Source: a virus (Duplodnaviria; Caudoviricetes). From it: 35,308 nt of DNA. Below are positions 9,041 to 26,202 of this stretch, one piece after another (positions within the stretch are counted from its first letter, which is position 1; the number at the start of each line of letters is the position of its first letter). A model generated the notes under the pieces. It saw only the letters and a list, made by a program, of their open reading frames with translations. It did no database searches and was not told where the DNA came from. Where the stretch lies: the IMG/VR virus record IMGVR_UViG_3300048110_000200, positions 1 through 35,308 of that record, one strand, 5' to 3'. The translations under genes were made by a program, and so were the position numbers.

Positions 9041-9232
9041 TTAATAAATAGCCTCTACACCAATTCGTACAGGGATTAAGGGTGTATTATTATCTATAGC
9101 TTCGTTAAGCTTTTCTAATTTATCGAAAGTATTACCAAAAGTTCTATTAATTATTGGCTCATGTCCAAATTTATCTATATATTCTTTTAACGCATCATCA
9201 TAAATTTTATTAAAGTTAAATTTTTCAACCAT
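9041..9232 (-). CDS. Small hypothetical protein (possible partner/immunity protein of the MuF C-terminal domain)
   Basis: 63 aa; start overlaps the MuF stop. Function inferred from position only. Confidence 0.55.
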   Translation of the reverse strand: MVEKFNFNKIYDDALKEYIDKFGHEPIINRTFGNTFDKLEKLNEAIDNNTPLIPVRIGVEAIY

Positions 9233-10766
9233 CTATAATTTCTTTCATTATATTTTCAAAAGCTTCTAGGGTATTTGGCATGTTATCTTTTAACCATTTT
9301 TTAGCTTTTCTTGATTTATATACTGTAAATATTTCTGCGAATGCTTCATTGTATATATGTTGCTCTTGCTTCCAATATGCTTTGCTATGACCAGATACTC
9401 CAGAATTTTCATGTCTAAATTTACCTCTAGCAAGTCCGTCTATAATATCTGCTAAATTTTCTGCTTGATCATATTTTGCTGTATAAAAGTAATATGTAAT
9501 TTGTCTGCCTGTATTTTTATAAGTATGTATTCTTTTATCTTTTTTATATAATTCATCAAGGTAACGATCTATTGCCTTTTTCTTACGCATACCTTTGCCA
9601 AGACCCATATTTTTAGCGTCTAAATCTAATGCACTCATAAACTGAGTGCCACCAACGCTATACGATATATTTTGTCTATTATTTCTTTGACCAATCATGT
9701 GATCAATATGGTGTCCATATTCATGTATTGGCGTTAATTCATCCATATCGGTGTCTAGCTGTCTGTAAAATGCATAATATACACCCTCGCCTTGATTTAT
9801 ACTATCTGGTTTGGGCAATTTGTTAGCTACAGCAAGAGTAAGGGGTGTCATATTCCTGTTTATTCTATCTTCAATATCAGACTTCTTAAATTTAGAATTA
9901 GGCAACATTGTTATAAGATCAGTAAGATTAAGATTTTTAGGCGGTGGCGGTGGTGGTGTTATTTTCTCTGGCTTTGGCTGTGCATCATCAATAACAGTGT
10001 CCTCTGGTTGGACATAGAGCAATACGCACCTACAATTTACTACATTCGCCGCCCCACCACGACTATCACCTGGTCTATCCATTAACGCTGTGCCAAAGTT
10101 TGTAGGCACTTCAAAGTCTTCATCCATTGGTATTATTGTGCCATTCATCGCCGCGTGTTTGCTTCTAGTTCTATCATCTGTCACAGACACCCACTGCTTT
10201 TGAAGATTAGGTATATTCATTTCTTTTGCTAGACTGTGGTTTGCATAACTAGCCGCATTGTGGGTTTCAGTCCTAGATATAGTTGCTGAACGCGCCCTGC
10301 TGTAATTACCCCTAGTAGATTGAAATATTTGATCAGCTACATATCTTGTTCCTAGCGCCTCTTTGTCAGCCTCTAGCATAACTTTTACTAAATCTTTTCT
10401 TGTGGTATCTGATATTTTTTTAACTGCGCCTAAACCAGATACCCTCATGTAGTCTCTGATTAATAGTTCGAATTGACTATCTTGCTTTTGGTGTCGCAAC
10501 ATTCGTAAACCAAATGCTTCTATGACTGATCTATAATGTGGCTCTAATATCTTGAGTATACGGCCTTCAATCAAGTTCCCTGTTAGCTCAATAGAACTTC
10601 GTTCTAAATATTCACGTCGAGCTATGTCGCCGATCTTAGCGAATTCTGTAATTAAATTTAAAGAAAGTTTGCGCTCAAAAGATTGTCTTAATCTAAGTTG
10701 CTCTGTAATTTCACGCCTTGCGTTATATTTTACGCCGCCAAATTTTTTTAATTCTAGTGTCGCCAT
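9225..10766 (-). CDS. MuF (SPP1 gp7-like) minor head protein with C-terminal zincin-like extension
   Basis: RSATISRTETHNA, K-x-W-x-x-x-x-D-x-RTR-x-x-H and NCRC define MuF; then a TPPPPPP linker, HEYGH (9711-9725) and EAFAE (9333-9347). Confidence 0.9.
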   Translation of the reverse strand: MATLELKKFGGVKYNARREITEQLRLRQSFERKLSLNLITEFAKIGDIARREYLERSSIELTGNLIEGRILKILEPHYRSVIEAFGLRMLRHQKQDSQFELLIRDYMRVSGLGAVKKISDTTRKDLVKVMLEADKEALGTRYVADQIFQSTRGNYSRARSATISRTETHNAASYANHSLAKEMNIPNLQKQWVSVTDDRTRSKHAAMNGTIIPMDEDFEVPTNFGTALMDRPGDSRGGAANVVNCRCVLLYVQPEDTVIDDAQPKPEKITPPPPPPKNLNLTDLITMLPNSKFKKSDIEDRINRNMTPLTLAVANKLPKPDSINQGEGVYYAFYRQLDTDMDELTPIHEYGHHIDHMIGQRNNRQNISYSVGGTQFMSALDLDAKNMGLGKGMRKKKAIDRYLDELYKKDKRIHTYKNTGRQITYYFYTAKYDQAENLADIIDGLARGKFRHENSGVSGHSKAYWKQEQHIYNEAFAEIFTVYKSRKAKKWLKDNMPNTLEAFENIMKEIIDG

Positions 10767-10895: not shown

Positions 10896-11207
10896 TTAAG
10901 CCTCGTCAAAATGCGCTTGGACTTGCTCTAAAGTCTGTCCAGCAAATTTGTTTATACATTCATCAAGTTCTTCGGCGATGATTTTATCAATGTCTCTTAC
11001 AGTAAATGCTGTTGAATTAATGTGGCTTTCTTCTTTCTTAGCGCCAACAATATCAAATACGATGTAATTTTTGGCATCATGCAAATAAAGTTTTTTCCAA
11101 ATCTCAAGATCAATTCTTGTTTTGACAGGTTTACCAAAATGCCAGTTTGTTTTTTTCTGTATCTCAGCTTTAAATGCTTCGTCAAATTTTTTAGTAATTA
11201 ATGTCAT
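10896..11207 (-). CDS. Hypothetical protein
   Basis: Start moved to MTLITKK (11207) because the longer ORF start overlaps the predicted -10 box; leader AGGACAAGGGA. Confidence 0.7.
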   Translation of the reverse strand: MTLITKKFDEAFKAEIQKKTNWHFGKPVKTRIDLEIWKKLYLHDAKNYIVFDIVGAKKEESHINSTAFTVRDIDKIIAEELDECINKFAGQTLEQVQAHFDEA

Positions 11208-11239
11208 TGTTAAAATCCCTTGTCCTAATTTATATAAGT

Positions 11240-11390: not shown

Positions 11391-11424
11391 GTATTTATGA
11401 GACTAATGAAAGGAGGACAAGAAC

Positions 11425-11593: not shown

Positions 11594-11618
11594 AGCTCCA
11601 GCTATAACGGCTGGGGCT
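11594..11618 (+). repeat. Hairpin copy 1 (GCTCCAGC...GCTGGGGC)
   Basis: 8-9 bp stem with a U:G pair valid on the plus strand; stem repeated at 11941. Confidence 0.75.
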
Positions 11619-11641
11619 ACTTAAATTTGAGAGGACAAAAA

Positions 11642-11940: not shown

Positions 11941-11970
11941 GCTCCAGCTAATTGTAGCTGGGGCTTTTTA
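11941..11970 (+). terminator. Hairpin copy 2, intrinsic terminator-like
   Basis: GCTCCAGCTA-ATTG-TAGCTGGGGC followed by TTTTT. Confidence 0.7.
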
Positions 11971-11987
11971 TATTGAAGGGACAAGAA

Positions 11988-12819: not shown

Positions 12820-14983
12820 AACTTAATGGATGGTCTTTAGGCAATAAATCAGTATCAAATTTTCCGCGCTTGAAGCGGCCTGTTCTTACAGCGCTCAAGA
12901 ACCCATTTACCCTAGCATAAGCCCACTGATCGGCGCTCCTGACGCTTGGGCGCACACTTTGAGGGTTTGTTTGATAAGCACCTATGCCCCTTCTAAATAC
13001 TGCCTCTAGCATTCTTTGTGTTACACGCTTTCCTTTTTTATCACCATGCTTGTCATTGTGATCTTTTACTTTTTCAGCGAGACCTTTTTTAACCGCTTCT
13101 GATATTTTGGCTTTCACATCCATAACATCTTCATTGGTAAAAAATTCTTCTAATTCAAAATTTTTATCACGCTCTCTGTCTAGCTGTGCGGCTTTTTTTC
13201 TTGCCCAAGTTTGACCAGCATCACCACCCCATAACAACCAAGCTATAAGACCAGCGCTTGGATAACCCTCTTCACCTCTGTTAAATCCTACACCCTGCTT
13301 ATCAACTTCATGTCTGCTAAAATAGCTGTGCATTCTTCTTACTGTTCTTGGGGTTAATCTTTCTCTTGATTTCAATTGGTTAGCCCTTGATACACCAACT
13401 AATGTACCACCACGATTAAATTCTTTTCTAAGTTTTAATCCGCGAGTTGCATTCGTTTGCATTGCTTCAGTTGGTATGGTATCAATATCACTTTCTGCTT
13501 TTTCTTCTGTTTCTTCAACTTCCGCCCATTTATTGCAAAGATATTGTATTCTGACTTTAGCATTGAATAAGTCGCAAACATTATTTTCATAGTGTATGCA
13601 ATTGCCACATCTTTTCTCACCATTGCCCATTCTGTAAGCTTCTGGCAGTTCATCTGGAACTGGCTCACCATCTGGATATTGATCAAGCTTTGTTTCACCA
13701 TATGCGTCTGTATAGTCTTTTTCAGCATCATCACCATTTGCTGGAGGTATAATTGGGCTACCTAATGGGAAAAGATTTGCTTCAATGAAAATATCGTCAC
13801 CACCATTAATCGGTGTTAATCCTAACCTATCTCTTGCTTCGTTTCTTGTAATAATACCAGCCCCAACAGCCGCTACTACATTCTCATAAACACGCTTTCT
13901 GCGTTCGACCATAGCTGGAATGCTGTCATAATCGTAATCAATTCTAATATCATCACCATATGATGGTGAAAGCCACTCATTAAGATCATTACAAACACGC
14001 ATTGCTAATGGTATGATTGTCTCCTCATACATAGCCAATCGTGCTTCTTGTATATTTGAATAAGTTTGGCTGTCTGGGATACCTATAATTTGCGACGGAA
14101 TACCAAAGCAAAGAGCAATGTCTTTAGCCGCCATATGCTTGTTTTGTAAAAAATCCATATCCCTTGGGGACATACCCATTTCTTTCCAATCAAAATCACC
14201 TTCAAGCAACATAGGTTTACCAGAATTATTAGTTCCACTCATTCTGCGGTCTAAATCATCTTTTATTTGCTTTCTCTGAATATCAGACATCATCATTGGA
14301 TTTCCAGATGTATCAGTAGGCTTAAATATAACCGCTCCTGATGGTCTAGCACCATTAACAAGCAATGCTATATTATGCTTTGCTATGAGATTATGTTGAT
14401 CAACATCTATTGAAGCCGCCATAAGGGGTGACATACCTAGATAATCATCCAATGGATTCCAAGTTTTAAAATGCTTTACTTCTGATTGACCTGTAAATGG
14501 GTCAGCTTCATAAGTTTTTGCAACCTTGCCATTAAGCATATAATTATACCCTTTTGGTATAGAAGTATTGCTTGGTATTATTTCAACACGATCTGGCCTT
14601 AAAAGGTGTAACTCACTTGGCAAGCCGCCAGCGGTGCTACTAATAGCGAAACTATTACCAGATAATAAAATATACGCATAAAGTGATTGAAAATATTCAT
14701 TGCCAGCCTGTATTGGGTTAGGTTTTTTTAAAAGGGTTAATAATGGGTGTTGCTCAAGCTCTACATCGCCTTGATATACTTTAAAACTTATAGAAGCGGC
14801 GGCCTGTGATATTTCATTAACGCATTTAAAAACTACTGCATTCTGCTGATAACCCTCTTTGGCATATGATCTGTAGTTATCTTGCCTGTTGTGATATGGC
14901 GTTGTTTGTTGCATATGCACTCTTGGCGCTTCTTTATGTTCTAAATTTAAATTATTTTTCTTTAAAAAATCAAAAAAGGCCAT
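12809..14983 (-). CDS. Portal protein, HK97 family, with about 310-aa C-terminal extension
   Basis: EGY-x-x-N-x-x-V, HPLL-x-LL-x-x-PNP, LRPDRV, NPLDDY-x-GMSP, NGARPSG, LLEG, TYSN, NEAR; portal core ends near residue 410 of 724. Confidence 0.95.
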   Translation of the reverse strand: MAFFDFLKKNNLNLEHKEAPRVHMQQTTPYHNRQDNYRSYAKEGYQQNAVVFKCVNEISQAAASISFKVYQGDVELEQHPLLTLLKKPNPIQAGNEYFQSLYAYILLSGNSFAISSTAGGLPSELHLLRPDRVEIIPSNTSIPKGYNYMLNGKVAKTYEADPFTGQSEVKHFKTWNPLDDYLGMSPLMAASIDVDQHNLIAKHNIALLVNGARPSGAVIFKPTDTSGNPMMMSDIQRKQIKDDLDRRMSGTNNSGKPMLLEGDFDWKEMGMSPRDMDFLQNKHMAAKDIALCFGIPSQIIGIPDSQTYSNIQEARLAMYEETIIPLAMRVCNDLNEWLSPSYGDDIRIDYDYDSIPAMVERRKRVYENVVAAVGAGIITRNEARDRLGLTPINGGDDIFIEANLFPLGSPIIPPANGDDAEKDYTDAYGETKLDQYPDGEPVPDELPEAYRMGNGEKRCGNCIHYENNVCDLFNAKVRIQYLCNKWAEVEETEEKAESDIDTIPTEAMQTNATRGLKLRKEFNRGGTLVGVSRANQLKSRERLTPRTVRRMHSYFSRHEVDKQGVGFNRGEEGYPSAGLIAWLLWGGDAGQTWARKKAAQLDRERDKNFELEEFFTNEDVMDVKAKISEAVKKGLAEKVKDHNDKHGDKKGKRVTQRMLEAVFRRGIGAYQTNPQSVRPSVRSADQWAYARVNGFLSAVRTGRFKRGKFDTDLLPKDHPLSSKD

Positions 14984-16820: not shown

Positions 16821-17243
16821 TCATATATTTTCACTATTATCCAGTATCAACTTCTTTAAACGTGTTGTTGACCAATTGTGTTCTCTTTTATTATAATAAA
16901 TATCTATCTCTAGGTCAGAACCAGTAAAGTATTTATTTATATAATCAGAACCTATAATTCTTACATCTATGGGTAAAGATTTGAGCAATTCAATCAACTC
17001 ATCCTCTGTATGATAAATTATTACTTCATCTACATATTTTACAGCATTCAGCTGTATTTGCCTCTCCATAAGAGATTGTATCGGTTTATTTTTTTCTGGT
17101 CTATCTATGGTGGGGTCAACTTGCAATCCAACTATTAGATAGTCACAAATAGATTTAGCTTCTTGAAGCATAGTTATATGCCCTGAATGTAAAAGATCAA
17201 AACAAGAGCATGTAAAGCCTATATTATACTTTTTCTTCATCAT
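16821..17243 (-). CDS. Cytidylyltransferase, TagD/glycerol-3-phosphate CT-like
   Basis: FDLLHSGH (HxGH), CDYLIVGLQ-x-DP, KYVDEV, GSDY, R-x-H-x-x-STT. Confidence 0.92.
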   Translation of the reverse strand: MMKKKYNIGFTCSCFDLLHSGHITMLQEAKSICDYLIVGLQVDPTIDRPEKNKPIQSLMERQIQLNAVKYVDEVIIYHTEDELIELLKSLPIDVRIIGSDYINKYFTGSDLEIDIYYNKREHNWSTTRLKKLILDNSENI

Positions 17244-17880
17244 TAAATTTCTTTTTGATGAGTATTTGTTGTTTTGTTAACCATTCTTTTTTGTATTCTG
17301 TATTCTCAAATAGCTTAGAAAAGCCTGTAATATGCTTTAGCCTTAACAGCTCCTCTGGTTCCATTCCTAGATGATTGCATATATCAGCGTCTTTCCATCC
17401 CTGTTCAAGCATAGAAAACACCATAGAGGCCATACCATCGACACTATGAGAACCTCTAGCCCTGTTATGCCTTACTGTAGCCGCCATTCTTTCATTAATA
17501 TCTTTTTCTATTACAACAATTGGTAATCTGCCATGATTTCTGTCTGATATATCTTTATTGCTTTTGCAGGTAAAATATCTATGAAACCCATCAACTATAA
17601 TATATTTATCAAGTTCTTCATCATATATTGTAACTACTGGCTGTGTATATCCATCATGTTTGATTGATGTATAGAGAAGCTTCATTTCAGCACCAGCAAC
17701 ACTATTAGGATTATAATCGTTTGCTTGCACCTTTTCTATATCTACCCACATAACCCTATCAACTGGCTGTTGAATTGGAGACATACTATGCAAATCGTCT
17801 TTGAGTGCCTCAATATACTCAATCTTTTCTTGAGTTGATAAAGCATCTAAGTGGTCACGTATTGCATCATTAACTAACAT
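17224..17880 (-). CDS. ParB/Srx-fold protein, IbrB/YbdM-like
   Basis: ANDYNPN-x-VA-x-x-EM-x-LL-x-x-SI-x-x-DGYTQP, IVDGFHR, RMAATVRHNRARG-x-H, LGM-x-x-EE-x-LRLK. Confidence 0.92.
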   Translation of the reverse strand: MLVNDAIRDHLDALSTQEKIEYIEALKDDLHSMSPIQQPVDRVMWVDIEKVQANDYNPNSVAGAEMKLLYTSIKHDGYTQPVVTIYDEELDKYIIVDGFHRYFTCKSNKDISDRNHGRLPIVVIEKDINERMAATVRHNRARGSHSVDGMASMVFSMLEQGWKDADICNHLGMEPEELLRLKHITGFSKLFENTEYKKEWLTKQQILIKKKFNDEEKV

Positions 17881-19036
17881 TTACTGGTATCCAATCTTTA
17901 TGTTCTGATTTGTTTACAAAATCCATGTCGCCGCGCTTCCATCTTCTATATGTAATAGCAAATGGGTTTTGTTCAAAATTACTTACCTTAGTAAAATCTA
18001 TATCTTGAGCGAGAATAGTAGTAACATGAACCTTATGGAGCTTACTCATATCCTTTAACATAGAATATTTATCATCCATCTGTGCAAATTTTTTACGCAT
18101 TGCCTCTTGATAAGCTGGGTCAGTAACTAGATTTACAAGTAAATGATCTCTATATTCGCGCCAATCTTTAAACATATACGGCAAACTCTTAGCTTGGAAC
18201 ATATCAGCCTTAGTCATATGTCTTGCTTGGTTTACTCCATCTAAACGCTTAACAAGTTTATTCCATGTGTCACGCTCAATCTCTTGAAGATAAAACAACT
18301 GATGGACTGCTGTCTCATGGTGAAGGTTAGAAACGCGCATCTTTGTCGGGCTTACTCCATATTGATAAAAATAATCATATGCCTTTGCATATTGCCAGTT
18401 ATGATCAAATATACTTTTCCATATATCAGTATATGACCAATCATAGAGGGGGTAAAAATTATAATGATTTTCTTTTTTATTAACTTTTTTGCCCCATGTA
18501 ATCCATTTATATGTAGCCGCTGTAGTTAAGCCAGCTAGTCGGGCTGGGCTTTCTTCTGCCCTTACTCCAGCTAAAACAGCCATTGGGGTATCAGGCCAAT
18601 GATGTTTCATTATTGCTGGGAACATCTCATAAAATCTGTCTTTACCGTATATATTTTCTGTGATTGCAAAATCTTCTTTAGGTCGCATCCAGTTTTTATC
18701 ATCGCCTTCTGTCCAGCAATGCAAATAATGCTGTTCATTTGATGTTGAGTTTGTCATTTTTATTGGAATTTGAAACCACCAAGGCTCAACCCTTGGGTCA
18801 AGCATAACTTTTCTTACATAATCAACTACGTTTTGCCACTCCGCTTCTTGGTCTAAAAACATAACCTTTAGGGGTAAACGTCCTTTTTCTTCTGCAATTT
18901 TTAATGCAAGATTTAGCGTTACTGTGCTATCCTTTCCACCAGAGAAAGAAACAACTACTTCATCAAATTCGTCAAAAATAAATCTTATACGATCTAAAGC
19001 CGCATCAAAAACATTATTGTTAGTGTGTATTTTCAT
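17870..19036 (-). CDS. PAPS-reductase-fold (PP-loop) protein, IbrA/YbdN-like
   Basis: VSFSGGKDS, DQEAE, GVRAEES-x-x-R, YPLYDW-x-x-x-DIW, MRVS. Confidence 0.92.
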   Translation of the reverse strand: MKIHTNNNVFDAALDRIRFIFDEFDEVVVSFSGGKDSTVTLNLALKIAEEKGRLPLKVMFLDQEAEWQNVVDYVRKVMLDPRVEPWWFQIPIKMTNSTSNEQHYLHCWTEGDDKNWMRPKEDFAITENIYGKDRFYEMFPAIMKHHWPDTPMAVLAGVRAEESPARLAGLTTAATYKWITWGKKVNKKENHYNFYPLYDWSYTDIWKSIFDHNWQYAKAYDYFYQYGVSPTKMRVSNLHHETAVHQLFYLQEIERDTWNKLVKRLDGVNQARHMTKADMFQAKSLPYMFKDWREYRDHLLVNLVTDPAYQEAMRKKFAQMDDKYSMLKDMSKLHKVHVTTILAQDIDFTKVSNFEQNPFAITYRRWKRGDMDFVNKSEHKDWIPVNVS

Positions 19037-19566
19037 TCTGTATTGCCAGTAATAAAATCAGCTTTCATTCCCCATTCAATACAAGTGCTTATTGCTTTAT
19101 GTGCATCCCACATTTCCCAACTATCAATTGAAATAGATACATTCCATGCATCATGTTTATGCTTTTGAAAAACTTGATGTGGCGAATGAGTGTCTAAAAT
19201 ATAAAAAAGACCTCGTTCAAGCATTAATTCTTCTTTATCTACACCCCTGACGAAAATTCCATGATCTACTCTAATTTTTAATTGGTGTGAATATCTTGGA
19301 TATTTAGGGTCTATATGTAGAGGTGTTCCATTTCTAACTGCAATCCAATGTGGGTCGTCAATTAATATTGTTTTTCCATTTTCATCAACAGAGCGACCCC
19401 ATGTCTTTAATCTTTTTGCTTTTGTAAATTCAGTAACTCCAAAAGCTTTTCTAAGTTGCATTTCATTAGGACTTGCAATCTGTCTCGGTAAGTCAACCAT
19501 TGTGTGATAAACTGCTGGATTAGTTCTTTGGTCATTTTTTAGTTCAATATCCCATTTTACATCCAT
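19033..19566 (-). CDS. Putative cupin / Fe(II) oxygenase-like protein
   Basis: PLHID (HxD) and distal LDTHSPHQV His in a beta-rich context; fold assignment is inference. Confidence 0.5.
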   Translation of the reverse strand: MDVKWDIELKNDQRTNPAVYHTMVDLPRQIASPNEMQLRKAFGVTEFTKAKRLKTWGRSVDENGKTILIDDPHWIAVRNGTPLHIDPKYPRYSHQLKIRVDHGIFVRGVDKEELMLERGLFYILDTHSPHQVFQKHKHDAWNVSISIDSWEMWDAHKAISTCIEWGMKADFITGNTE

Positions 19567-20120
19567 TATTCTACTCCATCTTGAAATGTTAAAGATTGTC
19601 TTTTTGATGATCTTCTAGGGTCAATCATGCTTTTTGCTACCCTATGGTCAACCAATGAAGGCACACTAATCCAATACTTTTCTTTACGTTCTTTTAAAAA
19701 CTCCTGCATCATAAGGTCATAACCCATTGGGTCGTCAATTTTTTTATCCCATCTTTCCCAATAATCTGCGATCAAATTAGAATAATATGGTGGATTATAA
19801 TGGCACTGGTTCATCATAAACTTTCCGTCCCATCTACTACCAATTCTTATATCGTCTTTTCTCATTGAAAAAAATTGTATTAAACTAAACGGCTTTTGAG
19901 TGATAACTTTGTTTGCTTTTTTTACAAAATCTCTTGTTAAAATTATGTCTTCTTCCATATGAATACATGGTTCATCACCAGCCATTCTCATACCTTTAAT
20001 AAAAGTATGCATAGCATCTTGCTTTTCATCAAAACACCATTCAGCTTGCGGTAAGTGTTTTTTTAAATAATCAATAAATTCGCCACGCTCTTTAACAGCT
20101 CGTATTAATATTTTGACCAT
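19566..20120 (-). CDS. Putative GT-A fold glycosyltransferase-like protein
   Basis: IHMEEDIIL (LEDD-like metal site) and PSLVDH, as in GT25-like phage proteins. Confidence 0.6.
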   Translation of the reverse strand: MVKILIRAVKERGEFIDYLKKHLPQAEWCFDEKQDAMHTFIKGMRMAGDEPCIHMEEDIILTRDFVKKANKVITQKPFSLIQFFSMRKDDIRIGSRWDGKFMMNQCHYNPPYYSNLIADYWERWDKKIDDPMGYDLMMQEFLKERKEKYWISVPSLVDHRVAKSMIDPRRSSKRQSLTFQDGVE

Positions 20121-20416
20121 ATTGGCACTCTTATTCTTTCGCGTTCTCTGTTGATAATAGCCGCGTCTTCTGGCTTCTTATCCATTATCCAGTATCGCCA
20201 GCCCTGATAGTAATAATAATTTCTTGGCTCTGTTTGATTTTTAAAAAATATTTGCGGCAAACCATGTTCAAATATATAAGTAGCAGTCCAAATAAATTCG
20301 TCGTGATCGTCCCATTTTTTTCCTACAGTGTAATAATGTGGTATATGTGGCATAGTTTTTGCATAAACGAATTTAGCTTTTCTTAAGTTGCTACAAGCCC
20401 TTAATACATCACCCAT
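20105..20416 (-). CDS. Hypothetical protein
   Basis: Start MGDVLRAC right after the upstream stop, with AGGA RBS; FVYAKTMPHIPHYY and GWRYWIM...INR motifs. Confidence 0.7.
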   Translation of the reverse strand: MGDVLRACSNLRKAKFVYAKTMPHIPHYYTVGKKWDDHDEFIWTATYIFEHGLPQIFFKNQTEPRNYYYYQGWRYWIMDKKPEDAAIINRERERIRVPIWSKY

Positions 20417-20417
20417 C

Positions 20418-20993
20418 TTAATTTCCTGTAAATACAAATGTTTCAGCGCAATGGGGGCATATAACCTCTGTTCCTTCTTTTCCCTGTATTCTATCATTCA
20501 TATCTTTGTCCATTTTTTCACCAGCTTTGATCATATTATCTTCGTTGATTTCAGATGCATCAAATTTTGGCTCTAATACTGGGTTATAATTAAAAGCTGA
20601 TAAATCTATATCTACCCCCATAAGCCCTAGATCAAAACCTTCATTACTCATTTCTTTAAGTTGACTAAAATACAATCCTGTGTCCCATTCGCCATTTTCA
20701 GCAAGTTTATTATCAGCAATTACATATGCTTTTTTCTGTTGTTCAGTCCATCCTGTAGCTGTCATGCAGGGAACTTCCTCAAGATTTAACTCTTTAGCGG
20801 CAAATAATCGACCATGACCTGCAAGAACCTGGTCATTCTCGTCAATGAGAATAGGCATAGTCCAACCCCATTCCCTAATACTATCGGAGAGTTGTTTTAT
20901 TTGGCTGTCTGGATGAATTTTTGGATTTCTGTCGTAAGGAATAAGCTCACTTACAAGTCTTTTATTTACATTATCAGCCGCCCAATTAGACAT
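20418..20993 (-). CDS. ParB/Srx N-terminal domain protein with C-terminal CPxC
   Basis: LIPY-x-RNP-x-x-H, SIREWGWT-x-PILID, AGHGR, IADNKLAE, terminal CPHC; GGGAG RBS. Confidence 0.9.
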   Translation of the reverse strand: MSNWAADNVNKRLVSELIPYDRNPKIHPDSQIKQLSDSIREWGWTMPILIDENDQVLAGHGRLFAAKELNLEEVPCMTATGWTEQQKKAYVIADNKLAENGEWDTGLYFSQLKEMSNEGFDLGLMGVDIDLSAFNYNPVLEPKFDASEINEDNMIKAGEKMDKDMNDRIQGKEGTEVICPHCAETFVFTGN

Positions 20994-21149: not shown

Positions 21150-21551
21150 CTACCATATTTTTCTAAATTTTGACATTATTTCTTCTGCTGTTTTTTTTCT
21201 CTGTTCAGCATCAGGATTTTTTCTACTTTTGGACTCTATCTGCCTCTTAGGTGTTGTAAGCAATTTGTGCTTTCTGTTAGCTAAAATAATTTTTAGAATA
21301 AGACCTTCATGTGGTCTTCTGTTTGGATAATCAATAAGATATTGCATACAAGCTTTTGTAATTTCTTCTTGCGTATAATCTTGCAACATATCCATCCAAC
21401 CCATTAGAATATCTCGTTTGACATATTCATCTTGTGGAACTTCATAATATCTACTCATAAGTCCCTGTGCCTTGATTGCTATGCAAGCCCTGTGCTTACT
21501 AAGCTGATCATTGTCCAATATCTTTGATTGCATTGCTGGTAATTTATTCAT
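21150..21551 (-). CDS. Putative helicase loader/inhibitor-like replication protein
   Basis: W-x-x-x-L-x-DY-x-x-EEI-x-x-AC-x-x-Y...P pattern; follows the initiator as lambda P / G39P-like genes do. Confidence 0.55.
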   Translation of the reverse strand: MNKLPAMQSKILDNDQLSKHRACIAIKAQGLMSRYYEVPQDEYVKRDILMGWMDMLQDYTQEEITKACMQYLIDYPNRRPHEGLILKIILANRKHKLLTTPKRQIESKSRKNPDAEQRKKTAEEIMSKFRKIW

Positions 21552-22227
21552 CTGATGTAATCCTAACTCTTGCTAGATCATTGACCATATCCCTAAAGAG
21601 GTGATCTATTCCATGCTCTTGTTTTTCTAATTCATCGTCCCATCTTCCCTGATTAAGCCAAGTTGCAGGGTGTGGTATGAATTTTTTCTCCTTATGAGAT
21701 ACACTATCAGCATATGGTTTTACCGCATCAAGTATTCTATCTACACCAATAGCGTGTGATGCTTTTGCAAAAGCTTTTTCAGCATTAGCCCTACCAACCT
21801 TTCTGGGATAGATTGACCAGAAATTATCAAAGCCAATAGAATTTGATCTTAATATAGGTTTATTTACATGATTATTGATTACATGGTTATTGGTGTCTAA
21901 ATTCTGGATGGGGGCTAGTCCAGATTTTGCACCCCCTGCATCTATATTCTGTACCCCATTATCAATATTGAGGTAATATTCATTAGATGTTTGCTGTCCA
22001 TCTTCTCTGCATCTGCCCTTGCGTTCTATCAATCCCTTTTTTTCTAAGACAGTAAGGTGTGCAAATATTGAGCTTCTCGACATATTGCAATCTTTAGACA
22101 TTCTCTTAATGCTGGGGAAACATCCCAAGTCTGGATTATGTCTATCGGATAGCATCAATAATACAATTTTTTGTGATGGTGTTAAATCGGGCTGATGCAA
22201 TGCCCATACAACCGCTTTCATGCTCAT
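21544..22227 (-). CDS. Replication initiator (N-terminal HTH, lambda O-like layout)
   Basis: KIVLLML, CFPSI, L-x-x-KGLI, SNEY, then FDNFW-x-x-YPRK and PATWLNQ-x-RWDDE. Confidence 0.88.
   Translation of the reverse strand: MSMKAVVWALHQPDLTPSQKIVLLMLSDRHNPDLGCFPSIKRMSKDCNMSRSSIFAHLTVLEKKGLIERKGRCREDGQQTSNEYYLNIDNGVQNIDAGGAKSGLAPIQNLDTNNHVINNHVNKPILRSNSIGFDNFWSIYPRKVGRANAEKAFAKASHAIGVDRILDAVKPYADSVSHKEKKFIPHPATWLNQGRWDDELEKQEHGIDHLFRDMVNDLARVRITSDE
21864..21957. repeat. Iteron-like repeats within the initiator gene (candidate origin)
   Basis: TTACATGATTATTG (21864) / TTACATGGTTATTG (21879); TCTAAATTCTG (21896), TCCAGATTTTG (21919), TCTATATTCTG (21941) at 22-23 bp spacing. Confidence 0.55.
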
Positions 22228-22295
22228 AGTTTAGGTGTCCTTTCTCTTGTCCTATAATCTATTTATAGAATTTTATACAAATATCAACTTTTTTC

Positions 22296-22323
22296 TTGTC
22301 AATTGAAAATCATCGTGTATAAC
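22296..22323 (+). promoter_or_regulatory. Sigma70-like promoter with no downstream plus-strand ORF
   Basis: TTGTCA (22296-22301), 16 nt, TATAAC (22318-22323). Confidence 0.6.
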
Positions 22324-22329
22324 TAAATG

Positions 22330-22410
22330 CAATTGGGGTTTACTGCTCGTACACACCAAACTTAAACCCCGCACTGAGTCTCTTGTCCTTTCGCAGTGTG
22401 GGGTTTTATT
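22330..22410 (+). ncRNA. Candidate trans-acting antisense small RNA
   Basis: Promoter upstream; 5' hairpin 22333-22359; 13-bp stem 22364-22376/22394-22406 with a G:U pair valid only on the plus strand; 17-nt loop AGUCUCUUGUCCUUUCG; U-rich tail. Confidence 0.65.
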
Positions 22411-22588
22411 TATTTTCATCAAAATATTCAGATAATTTTTCTAATGTAGATAGTGAAGGCTTTCCGTCATTTTTTCTTATTCTGGATAAAGACATATAAG
22501 TTAATCCGCATTTATCTGCAACATATGCTAATCTTCTATCAATTAGCTTGTCTCTGACTTCTTCACTTGTAAGTAATTTGGCTTTCAT
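22406..22588 (-). CDS. Cro/CI-like HTH regulator
   Basis: Start MKAKLLT after GGAG; VADKCGLTYMSLSRI...PSLSTLEKLSEYF. Confidence 0.85.
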   Translation of the reverse strand: MKAKLLTSEEVRDKLIDRRLAYVADKCGLTYMSLSRIRKNDGKPSLSTLEKLSEYFDENK

Positions 22589-22684
22589 TTTTCTCTCCAA
22601 TGTTAAATAATTTATTTTATTCTTTACATTAATTAAACTAATCATTAATAATTGTAAACATATAATATGGACAGGAGCTAAAAT

Positions 22685-22903
22685 ATGAAAAAGAACCCAC
22701 CTATCAGATTTGTAAAATCTCAAATACTTAATGGGATAGTAAATCATAATACAGACTTATTAGAACTAGAGATGTCTGGTAAAATTAGTCATTCGGAATT
22801 TCTTGCACAAAGTTTTCCAGCTAGCGCAATGCAAACAATAGATAGTGCAATTGCAACTGCTATTGATCTATTTAACACAAAGGAACTCGCAAATGAGAAT
22901 TGA
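22685..22903 (+). CDS. Hypothetical protein
   Basis: 72 aa, AGGAG RBS, first gene of the recombination operon. Confidence 0.75.
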   Translation: MKKNPPIRFVKSQILNGIVNHNTDLLELEMSGKISHSEFLAQSFPASAMQTIDSAIATAIDLFNTKELANEN

Positions 22904-23375
22904 CTCTGCAATGATTACCGCGATTGCCGAAGAACTTGAGCCATATCGTGACGACCAAGATGCTTTCTGGACAACTCTGGACGGTGAAACAGATGTTCTT
23001 GATCTAGTAACATCTATATTATTAAAAATTTCAGAGGCAGAAGCATGGTCAAATTCATGTGCGGATGTTTCTAAAAGATATGCAGAACGCAAATCAGGTC
23101 ATGATGCAAGAAAGCAAAAGCTTACAAAAATGCTTAAGACCATTATGCTTTGTGCAAATCAAACTAAAATCCCACACGCTCTAGCAACCATATCTTTGAG
23201 GAAAGGTACTGAAAGCGTAAACATCATTAATCCTAATGAAATACCAACACAATTAACCAAGGTGTCTATCACACCAGATAAAACAGAAATCAAAAAACAA
23301 CTCAAAGCGGGTATCAAAATTGATGGGGCTGAATTAGTCACTGGTGCTCAAACTATATCTATAAGGACTAAATAA
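22893..23375 (+). CDS. Siphovirus Gp157-like protein
   Basis: TLDGETD, coiled coil, ATISLRKG, PDK-x-x-IK-x-x-LKAG-x-x-I-x-GAEL; start MRIDS. Confidence 0.85.
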   Translation: MRIDSAMITAIAEELEPYRDDQDAFWTTLDGETDVLDLVTSILLKISEAEAWSNSCADVSKRYAERKSGHDARKQKLTKMLKTIMLCANQTKIPHALATISLRKGTESVNIINPNEIPTQLTKVSITPDKTEIKKQLKAGIKIDGAELVTGAQTISIRTK

Positions 23376-26174: not shown

Positions 26175-26202
26175 GTTAATATAATTTATGAGAGGACAAA
26201 TT

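Follow-up and report, generated by a model that had tools for sequence, protein, structure and literature searches.

Comparative analysis of the sequence strongly supports a predicted antisense RNA directed at the ribosome-binding sites of the replication initiator gene (rep) and of the early operons of an uncultured phage. This RNA, approximately 85 nt long, quite probably blocks ribosome entry on the replication gene and the early operons together. Antisense control of replication thus appears to be widened to a multi-target early-gene regulator, and the comparative evidence for this is strong: the pairing between RNA and leaders is supported by the co-variation of seed and target over 20 sequence clusters and by strand polarity. 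No description of this RNA family was found in the open-access literature.

The DNA analysed here (the window, 35,308 nt) is an entire virus record, 35.3 kb, linear and 77% complete, with HK97-like head and tail genes and a lambdoid-like early region. The RNA locus sits between rep and the gene for a Cro-like protein, both on the minus strand, and no ORF of at least 50 aa was found between these two genes in the window. The divergent operon p72-Gam-Erf-SSB-NinB begins at 22685 on the plus strand. The features of the locus are as follows.

21544-22227, minus strand: rep, the replication initiator gene (phrog_270, E=7.7e-41; HTH_36)
22260-22287, minus strand: candidate rep promoter, TTGATA-16-TAAATA, placed by eye from relatives
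22296-22323, plus strand: predicted promoter of the RNA, TTGTCA-16-TATAAC, read from the sequence, with similar sites in relatives
22329-22416, plus strand: predicted small RNA, ~85 nt, its 5' end placed from the promoter and its 3' end from the U tail
22333-22359, plus strand: weak 5' hairpin, variable among relatives
22364-22416, plus strand: 13-bp stem resembling a terminator, its U tail reaching the stop codon of the Cro-like gene
22377-22393, plus strand: seed loop, 17 nt, complementary to the Shine-Dalgarno (SD) sequence and spacer of the targets
22406-22588, minus strand: Cro-like HTH protein, 60 aa (phrog_18104; of Pfam, PF01381 only)
22685-23375, plus strand: p72 and a Gam-like gene (phrog_253), the start of the divergent recombination operon

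A first, sequence-only reading of this DNA had pointed out a plus-strand promoter-like site, which is present as TTGTCA (22296-22301), a 16-nt spacer and TATAAC (22318-22323). It is absent from the sites shown by a sigma-70 scanner because its -10 box lacks the last T. The candidate rep promoter, of a conserved TTGAT type and read by eye, stands back to back with it and probably starts the rep mRNA at ~22253, at about the first target site. That reading had also described two hairpins downstream, of which the second has all the features ascribed to it, namely a 13-bp stem (22364-22406), one G:U pair on the plus strand and a 17-nt loop, whereas the first is weak and differs among relatives. The stem of the second hairpin is followed by a U-rich tail; its stability corresponds to z=-3.37, with none of 200 shuffled sequences equally stable, and the predicted folding energy is -20.7 kcal/mol on the plus strand versus -16.6 kcal/mol on the minus strand. 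Opening of the seed loop is predicted to cost 0.95 kcal/mol, and the loop presumably resembles the 3' end of 16S rRNA.

Two other explanations of the hairpin region were rejected, bidirectional termination because relatives do not keep the U tail of the minus strand, and a conserved peptide within the RNA region of the window because relatives share no reading frame. At the gathering score, Rfam matched neither the window nor any of 12 related loci, and the best weak match, Pseudomon-1/ErsA, was rejected at 20.4 bits versus a cut-off of 50. Of six RNA runs from three studies, the four used here are metatranscriptome assemblies from one study, representing a ~92% relative, and as these are unstranded contigs of even depth across genes and spacers, the predicted RNA is not resolvable in them.

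The target sites in the window, all identified by pairing with the loop, are listed below.

22236-22253, minus strand: two tandem sites in the rep leader, with 11 and 9 perfect pairs
22669-22677, plus strand: site before p72, GGACAGGAG, in front of the first gene of the p72-Gam-Erf-SSB-NinB operon
11214-11226, minus strand: site before a 103-aa ORF (ATG 11207), the first gene after TTGACA-17-TACATT
11412-11422, plus strand: site before a 43-aa Lys-rich ORF (TTG 11425), the first gene after TTGACA-17-TATAAT
11628-11638, plus strand: site before a 95-aa ORF (ATG 11642), directly after a hairpin
11974-11986, plus strand: site before a 93-aa paralogue (ATG 11988), directly after a duplicate hairpin
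26189-26199, plus strand: site before a 49-aa ORF (ATG 26203), the first gene after TTGACA-17-TATAAA

Six of these leaders had been named in the sequence-only reading, and all six were found in place with the pairing it gave, four of them extending by a further 1-2 nt; the seventh, before p72 (22669), had been overlooked. Its claim that three targets are first genes after consensus promoters also holds, for the ORFs starting at 11207, 11425 and 26203. When the loop was scored against 65 leaders, the top seven were those of rep, p72 and the five early ORFs, with energies of -19.3 to -15.2 kcal/mol, although both the -15 kcal/mol cut and the 'top 7' set were chosen post hoc with the data already seen, and the eighth-ranked leader was merely 0.5 kcal/mol weaker before accessibility correction. 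After opening costs were subtracted, the seven targets lay between -12.1 and -17.0 kcal/mol and the five other leaders checked at -9.5 kcal/mol or weaker. The leaders were listed by hand, with one start mis-set and another 2 bases off, which left the ranking unaffected. The structural genes do lack the motif, as the sequence-only reading had said: none ranks among the top seven of the 65, the best structural-gene leader reaching -12.5 kcal/mol. Shuffling of the loop, a control that had been suggested with that reading, bore out the pairing, as none of the 600 shuffles made under each of three nulls, one of which preserved the anti-SD half, matched the summed top-7 energy.

Counted simply, the GGACAA motif showed no excess (16 occurrences versus 14.1 ± 4.2); the enrichment lies in placement alone: six of nine pairings of at least 10 nt fall inside leaders, which make up 3% of the sequence (p=6e-8), and eight of 19 do so when pairings of at least 9 nt are counted. 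Six of the seven target sites lie within about -19 to 0 of the start codon and cover the SD. The motif, of GGACAAGAG-type in the window and different from lineage to lineage, is asymmetric and occurs in seven early leaders, in zero structural leaders and in one intergenic copy. A further argument of the sequence-only reading, that every deviation within the paired spans is A-to-G and hence compatible with G:U, was circular because the spans had been defined by pairing; a symmetric count gave 19 compatible versus 24 incompatible transitions (46 versus 53 at a lower cut), and without a G:U bias the argument does not stand alone. Near-identical hairpins at 11594-11618 and 11941-11964 each precede a target leader and a paralogue of ~95 aa (both phrog_12905). 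The sites at 11628 and 11974 thus belong to a duplicated hairpin-leader-gene unit and are not independent of each other.

Relatives of the window were found by searches with the rep, Cro-like and Gam-like proteins. In 20 distinct regions of the close cluster the 15-nt core of the loop is unchanged and the stem varies, although the uniformity of the loop is partly by construction as the cluster was defined by shared words. Across 11 aligned stems, 97% of the cells are paired and four of the 13 base pairs are altered on both sides. One relative (L136) carries a GAGA>GGAA change in the loop and the same change in the first site of its rep leader; in another (L132) the Cro-like gene is followed by unrelated DNA. 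An exact search for the loop in viral contigs returned 70 stretches and added one new family member (L022); most of the 70 were set aside as chance matches, having neither a hairpin nor any related protein. Two unrelated contigs, L066 (~9985-10035) and L060, contain the same 15-mer inside a strong hairpin and possibly encode other anti-SD RNAs. In G003 (L091 9390-10001) the Gam protein is 95% identical to that of the window, the Cro-like protein 48% and rep 45%, and the RNA has another seed; the control cassette of G003 looks to have been exchanged.

A wider Gam alignment yielded 71 distinct regions upstream of rep, in 22 sequence clusters, and a usable p72 leader in 67 regions (20 clusters). 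In most regions a hairpin followed by a U tail is present on the strand that does not encode rep. With strand-neutral detection, which in 6 of the 22 clusters chose another hairpin than the terminator search, stem mismatches numbered 15 G.T versus 2 A.C. Of the 22 clusters, 19 have the longer U tail on the antisense strand, 1 has it on the other strand and 2 are tied. Promoter-like sites of the form TTG-N3-(16-18)-TA, positioned to give an RNA of 59-115 nt, were present in 17 of 22 clusters compared with 6.9 ± 2.2 in shuffled sequences (0/500).

The single-stranded seed varies by cluster and the p72 leader varies along with it. The matched stretches of the p72 leader read GGACAGGAG in the window, TTGGAGGTTCAC in L099, ATAGGCAATAAGGG in L113, TAAAAATGGAG in L174 and AGCAACGAAGGA in L193; in L181, where the stretch is AGGCAATATAGGAAA, a one-base insertion relative to L113 is found in both seed and target. 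By our own labelling, about eight seed types occur across the clusters. Each RNA paired with its own p72 leader at a mean of -17.8 kcal/mol versus -13.2 ± 0.7 kcal/mol for permuted combinations, a difference reached by 0 of 100,000 permutations, and for 13 of the 20 p72 leaders the cognate RNA was among the three best of 20. The co-variation of loop and leaders that had been put forward as a check on the sequence-only reading is therefore found in relatives, with three to four clusters lacking a match. It remains when the SD core is masked (p=0.00035), and the rep leader also co-varies with its own RNA (p=0.0006). In contrast, the leader of Gam, the next gene and thus an internal control, shows no co-variation (p=0.64), nor does the opposite strand of the RNA region (-9.6 versus -9.7), and a stretch of rep coding sequence put in place of the RNA gave -12.8 versus -11.8 (p=0.054), a small same-genome effect.

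Cognate matches extend beyond these two genes. Over all called leaders there were 73, compared with 35.6 ± 6.5, and without p72 and rep there were still 58 compared with 32.0 ± 5.9 (p=1e-5), gene starts in relatives having been called by a simple ORF finder biased towards SD-like leaders. A ~280-aa gene of DUF932 type is a repeated target in several clusters, the family being confirmed for one protein; L149 carries a DUF932 gene at 13050-13886, and in several clusters genes of like size at that position bear a cognate site. Three of the 20 clusters match their cognate p72 leader poorly (L202, rank 9; L210, rank 12; L215, rank 20), L223 is a borderline case at rank 6, and distal target sites are absent from L091/G003. 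L202, L210 and L215 carry a different structured element upstream of rep, and in L194 the rep-upstream region is very short; in none of the four is the p72 leader clearly matched, and it is possible that the RNA was lost or replaced in them. The seed types are scattered over a Gam tree of 23 of the 24 labelled rows (L136 was dropped, having no usable Gam position), which was used solely to show this scatter because it does not resolve the deep branches and joins two long ones. One distant relative, G002 (L149 6957-8143), is a complete 35.5-kb genome with podovirus-like virion genes and the same rep/RNA/p72/Gam module. Alongside the RNA unit it contains four matched leaders, and no cro match, integrase or repressor was found in it (38 of 57 ORFs scanned for the repressor); RNA and targets persist in several clusters without a cro match, G002 included.

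Taken together, these observations suggest a mechanism. The RNA is likely transcribed opposite the cro-rep genes, from a host-type promoter that the host polymerase would use, and its open loop would pair over the SD and spacer of rep and six early genes, the targets being mostly first genes of transcription units. Such pairing would exclude the 30S subunit, so that translation of all targets would be blocked together, and the structural genes, which have no site, would be spared, leaving the late genes free. As phage DNA is expressed or copied the RNA would accumulate and cap the synthesis of initiator and early proteins, in the manner of a negative-feedback timer.

It is improbable that the pairing is real and has another outcome, be it mRNA cleavage, transcription termination or the guiding of a protein. 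For cleavage by RNase III, a trans duplex of 9-15 bp is short, which counts against that outcome. Several sites do coincide with predicted mRNA 5' ends or come close to them, and other antisense RNAs are described as working in such ways, the plasmid ctRNA through induced termination (PMC3155836), the P4 CI RNA through termination (PMC4825925) and OOP through RNase III (PMC12197685). However, the sites here are fixed relative to the starts, at about -19 to 0 in six of seven, with the SD covered, as expected if ribosome entry is blocked.

How the RNA reaches rep may differ between lineages. In L091, L099, L209, L212 and L225, a sense copy of the seed precedes an ORF of 14-23 codons that abuts or overlaps the start of rep, its end lying from 3 nt ahead of that start to 16 nt past it, and trans pairing of the RNA to the rep leader is weak in these five clusters (ranks 6-17). 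Most other clusters pair directly with the rep ribosome site, eight of them at rank 1-3. The split is suggestive (p=0.14 over all clusters; p=0.02 without the four non-matching ones). The arrangement recalls plasmid leader-peptide coupling; translational coupling of the small ORF and rep is possible in the five clusters, where rep would be controlled in cis through occlusion of the small ORF's ribosome site by the RNA. In the window cluster rep would have its own promoter and would be reached in trans via the two tandem sites: the rep mRNA of the window probably starts at ~22253, away from the RNA gene, so that pairing there would have to be in trans. These findings bear on the idea that the RNA provides only cis control of replication, like a plasmid countertranscript, and that the distant matches merely reflect a strong ribosome-binding motif shared by early genes. 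In favour of it, 5 of 22 clusters have the intergenic copy ahead of a small ORF whose end reaches or crosses the rep start, and the position and size of the RNA resemble those of ctRNA. We consider cis-only control very unlikely, however, because in the window cluster the copy is part of the terminator loop and is not followed by a conserved ORF, cis action is unavailable there if rep has its likely own promoter, and pairing beyond the SD core is lineage-specific.

There is likewise little chance that the motif is bound by a phage or host protein, either as a DNA operator or as a site for a GGA-type RNA-binding regulator, with the hairpin a terminator or decoy on the cro-rep strand: the minus-strand loop does show a GGA motif, several sites lie at most about 25 nt from predicted transcription starts and the target deviations show no G:U bias, but the motif is non-palindromic and in sense orientation at every start, it switches wholesale between lineages, as base pairing explains simply, several motif-bearing clusters have no cro match, and both the stem mismatches and the U tails point to the antisense strand.

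An accessible conserved seed and co-varying targets, by which trans-acting base-pairing sRNAs are recognised as a class, are both found for the predicted RNA, and parts of its design are known from other systems. CopA-tap-repA of plasmid R1 and RepY of IncI plasmids are antisense RNA/leader-peptide systems, and in five clusters the RNA would similarly cover the ribosome site of a short reading frame that overlaps or abuts the start of rep; unlike these systems, it belongs to a phage and the same seed also fits unlinked early genes. The C4 RNA of P1/P7 pairs over a ribosome-binding region, its targets lying upstream of the antirepressor operon. In lambda, OOP is located before gene O. The predicted RNA resembles it in that both are short phage RNAs, run antisense to the DNA from cro to the initiator gene and start at a promoter of their own close to that gene. 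Whereas OOP is described as antisense to cII, promoting RNase III decay (PMC12197685), no cII-like gene lies between cro and rep here, merely the U tail overlaps the Cro-like stop codon, and the active part is apparently a seed with many trans targets. Like sar of P22, as outlined in PMC12197685, the RNA would lie over the ribosome-binding region of the phage's own gene; sar and C4, according to the accounts available, serve one antirepressor operon under a protein repressor, in contrast to rep and several early operons here. C4 is listed as Rfam family RF01695 in PMC2864571; PMC5415839 likewise offers nothing beyond listings. RF01695 gave no match in the window or the 12 related loci and is absent from the five weak matches up to E=10, and no antirepressor family was found among the target genes, which are rep, p72 and small ORFs.

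The repABC ctRNA of Alphaproteobacteria is a small antisense RNA on the opposite strand just upstream of the initiator gene, which it controls negatively (PMC3155836), and the predicted RNA is like it, at the level of sequence, in having an antisense unit directly upstream of the initiator gene with a terminator on the antisense strand. ctRNA is reported to act in cis on one mRNA by induced termination (PMC3155836), whereas here lineage-specific sites are offered in trans by several unlinked early operons; it also lies between repB and repC, in contrast to this locus, which has no repAB, is flanked by the Cro-like gene and a phrog_270 initiator and has no Rfam match. In P4, CI is described as processed from a transcript that holds its targets seqA and seqC and as causing termination (PMC4825925). 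As in P4, an RNA rather than a protein would restrain replication genes; unlike P4 CI, the RNA unit lies opposite the rep strand with a promoter-like site and a terminator of its own, and the sites it would pair with span start regions. The P4 CI and P1 C4 RNAs, named as precedents in the sequence-only reading, are thus functional analogues and, with no Rfam match, not members of the same family.

The closest anatomical parallel is SAS of the cluster K mycobacteriophages, an asymmetric extended-SD motif before non-structural genes, of which four cluster K phages have one reversed copy unlinked to a gene start (PMC3203893, PMC11373665). Its role was stated to be unknown in 2011 and in 2024, and the passages of these two papers on SAS name no partner RNA (PMC3203893, PMC11373665). 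The motif described here is likewise asymmetric, start-proximal, confined to non-structural genes and accompanied by one extra copy away from a start. The 13-bp consensus given in PMC3203893 is not matched and the host differs, and the reversed copy of the present family, unlike that reported for SAS, lies within a unit of promoter and terminator, and its sequence changes along with the targets.

The host of the window phage is likely a marine alphaproteobacterium, as among phage isolates the Cro-like protein matches only the Roseobacter phages CRP-901/902 (38-39% identity). The assignment is no firmer than that because there is no near relative among the isolates, the best matches being 34% for rep, at most 43% for Gam and 45% for the capsid. 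In the prokaryotic genomes scanned, no close Gam relative was found, only four distant Gam-like loci of at most 50% identity, three of them from Rhodobacteraceae-type records. A direct search for the tyrosine integrase PF00589 found it in none of five records, of which two are 90% complete or more, in line with the sequence-only reading, which had seen no integrase. No CI-type repressor was found among the PHROG-scanned proteins, which comprised 37 proteins of the window and 38 of the 57 called ORFs of G002. Between rep and the terminase (16821-20993), the window contains two ParB-like genes and PAPS-reductase-like, nucleotidyltransferase and glucosyltransferase-like genes, possibly a DNA-modification module. 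At 9225-10766 it encodes a head morphogenesis protein of 513 aa whose family match is limited to residues ~60-260, with a long C-terminal extension bearing an HExxH-like motif.

A negative-feedback timer in lytic growth is the simplest role for the RNA, given that there is no integrase match and no close prokaryotic Gam relative and that G002 has the RNA unit but no cro match and, among the 38 of 57 ORFs scanned, no repressor. The core of the sequence-only reading, one RNA acting on replication and early operons, is strongly supported by co-variation, but as for the lysis/latency switch it proposed, timing or feedback in lytic growth fits at least as well. The scattered seeds and the G003 cassette resemble the exchange of immunity regions, which keeps a carrier-state or superinfection role open. 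It is tempting to speculate, though we hold this to be doubtful, that the RNA confers immunity without a protein repressor, one RNA mastering replication and all early operons and able to hold a non-integrated carrier state; swappable seeds would then define immunity groups like lambdoid repressor-operator pairs, and SAS of mycobacteriophages would be explained likewise.

The phage antisense RNAs sar, OOP, aQ and sas are each described as acting on one phage gene, while the RNA predicted here apparently serves a whole early regulon. The seed types would amount to a natural set of orthogonal translation repressors, and this natural matrix of about eight seeds with matched targets makes the pairing model testable by cognate versus non-cognate reporters. 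For SAS, the role of which was still described as unknown in 2024 (PMC11373665), the model offers a concrete and testable explanation. The predicted RNA gene is carried by a widespread group of uncultured marine phages with no detected classical repressor, and suggests how small marine phages without a detected integrase or CI may time, limit or pause their growth.
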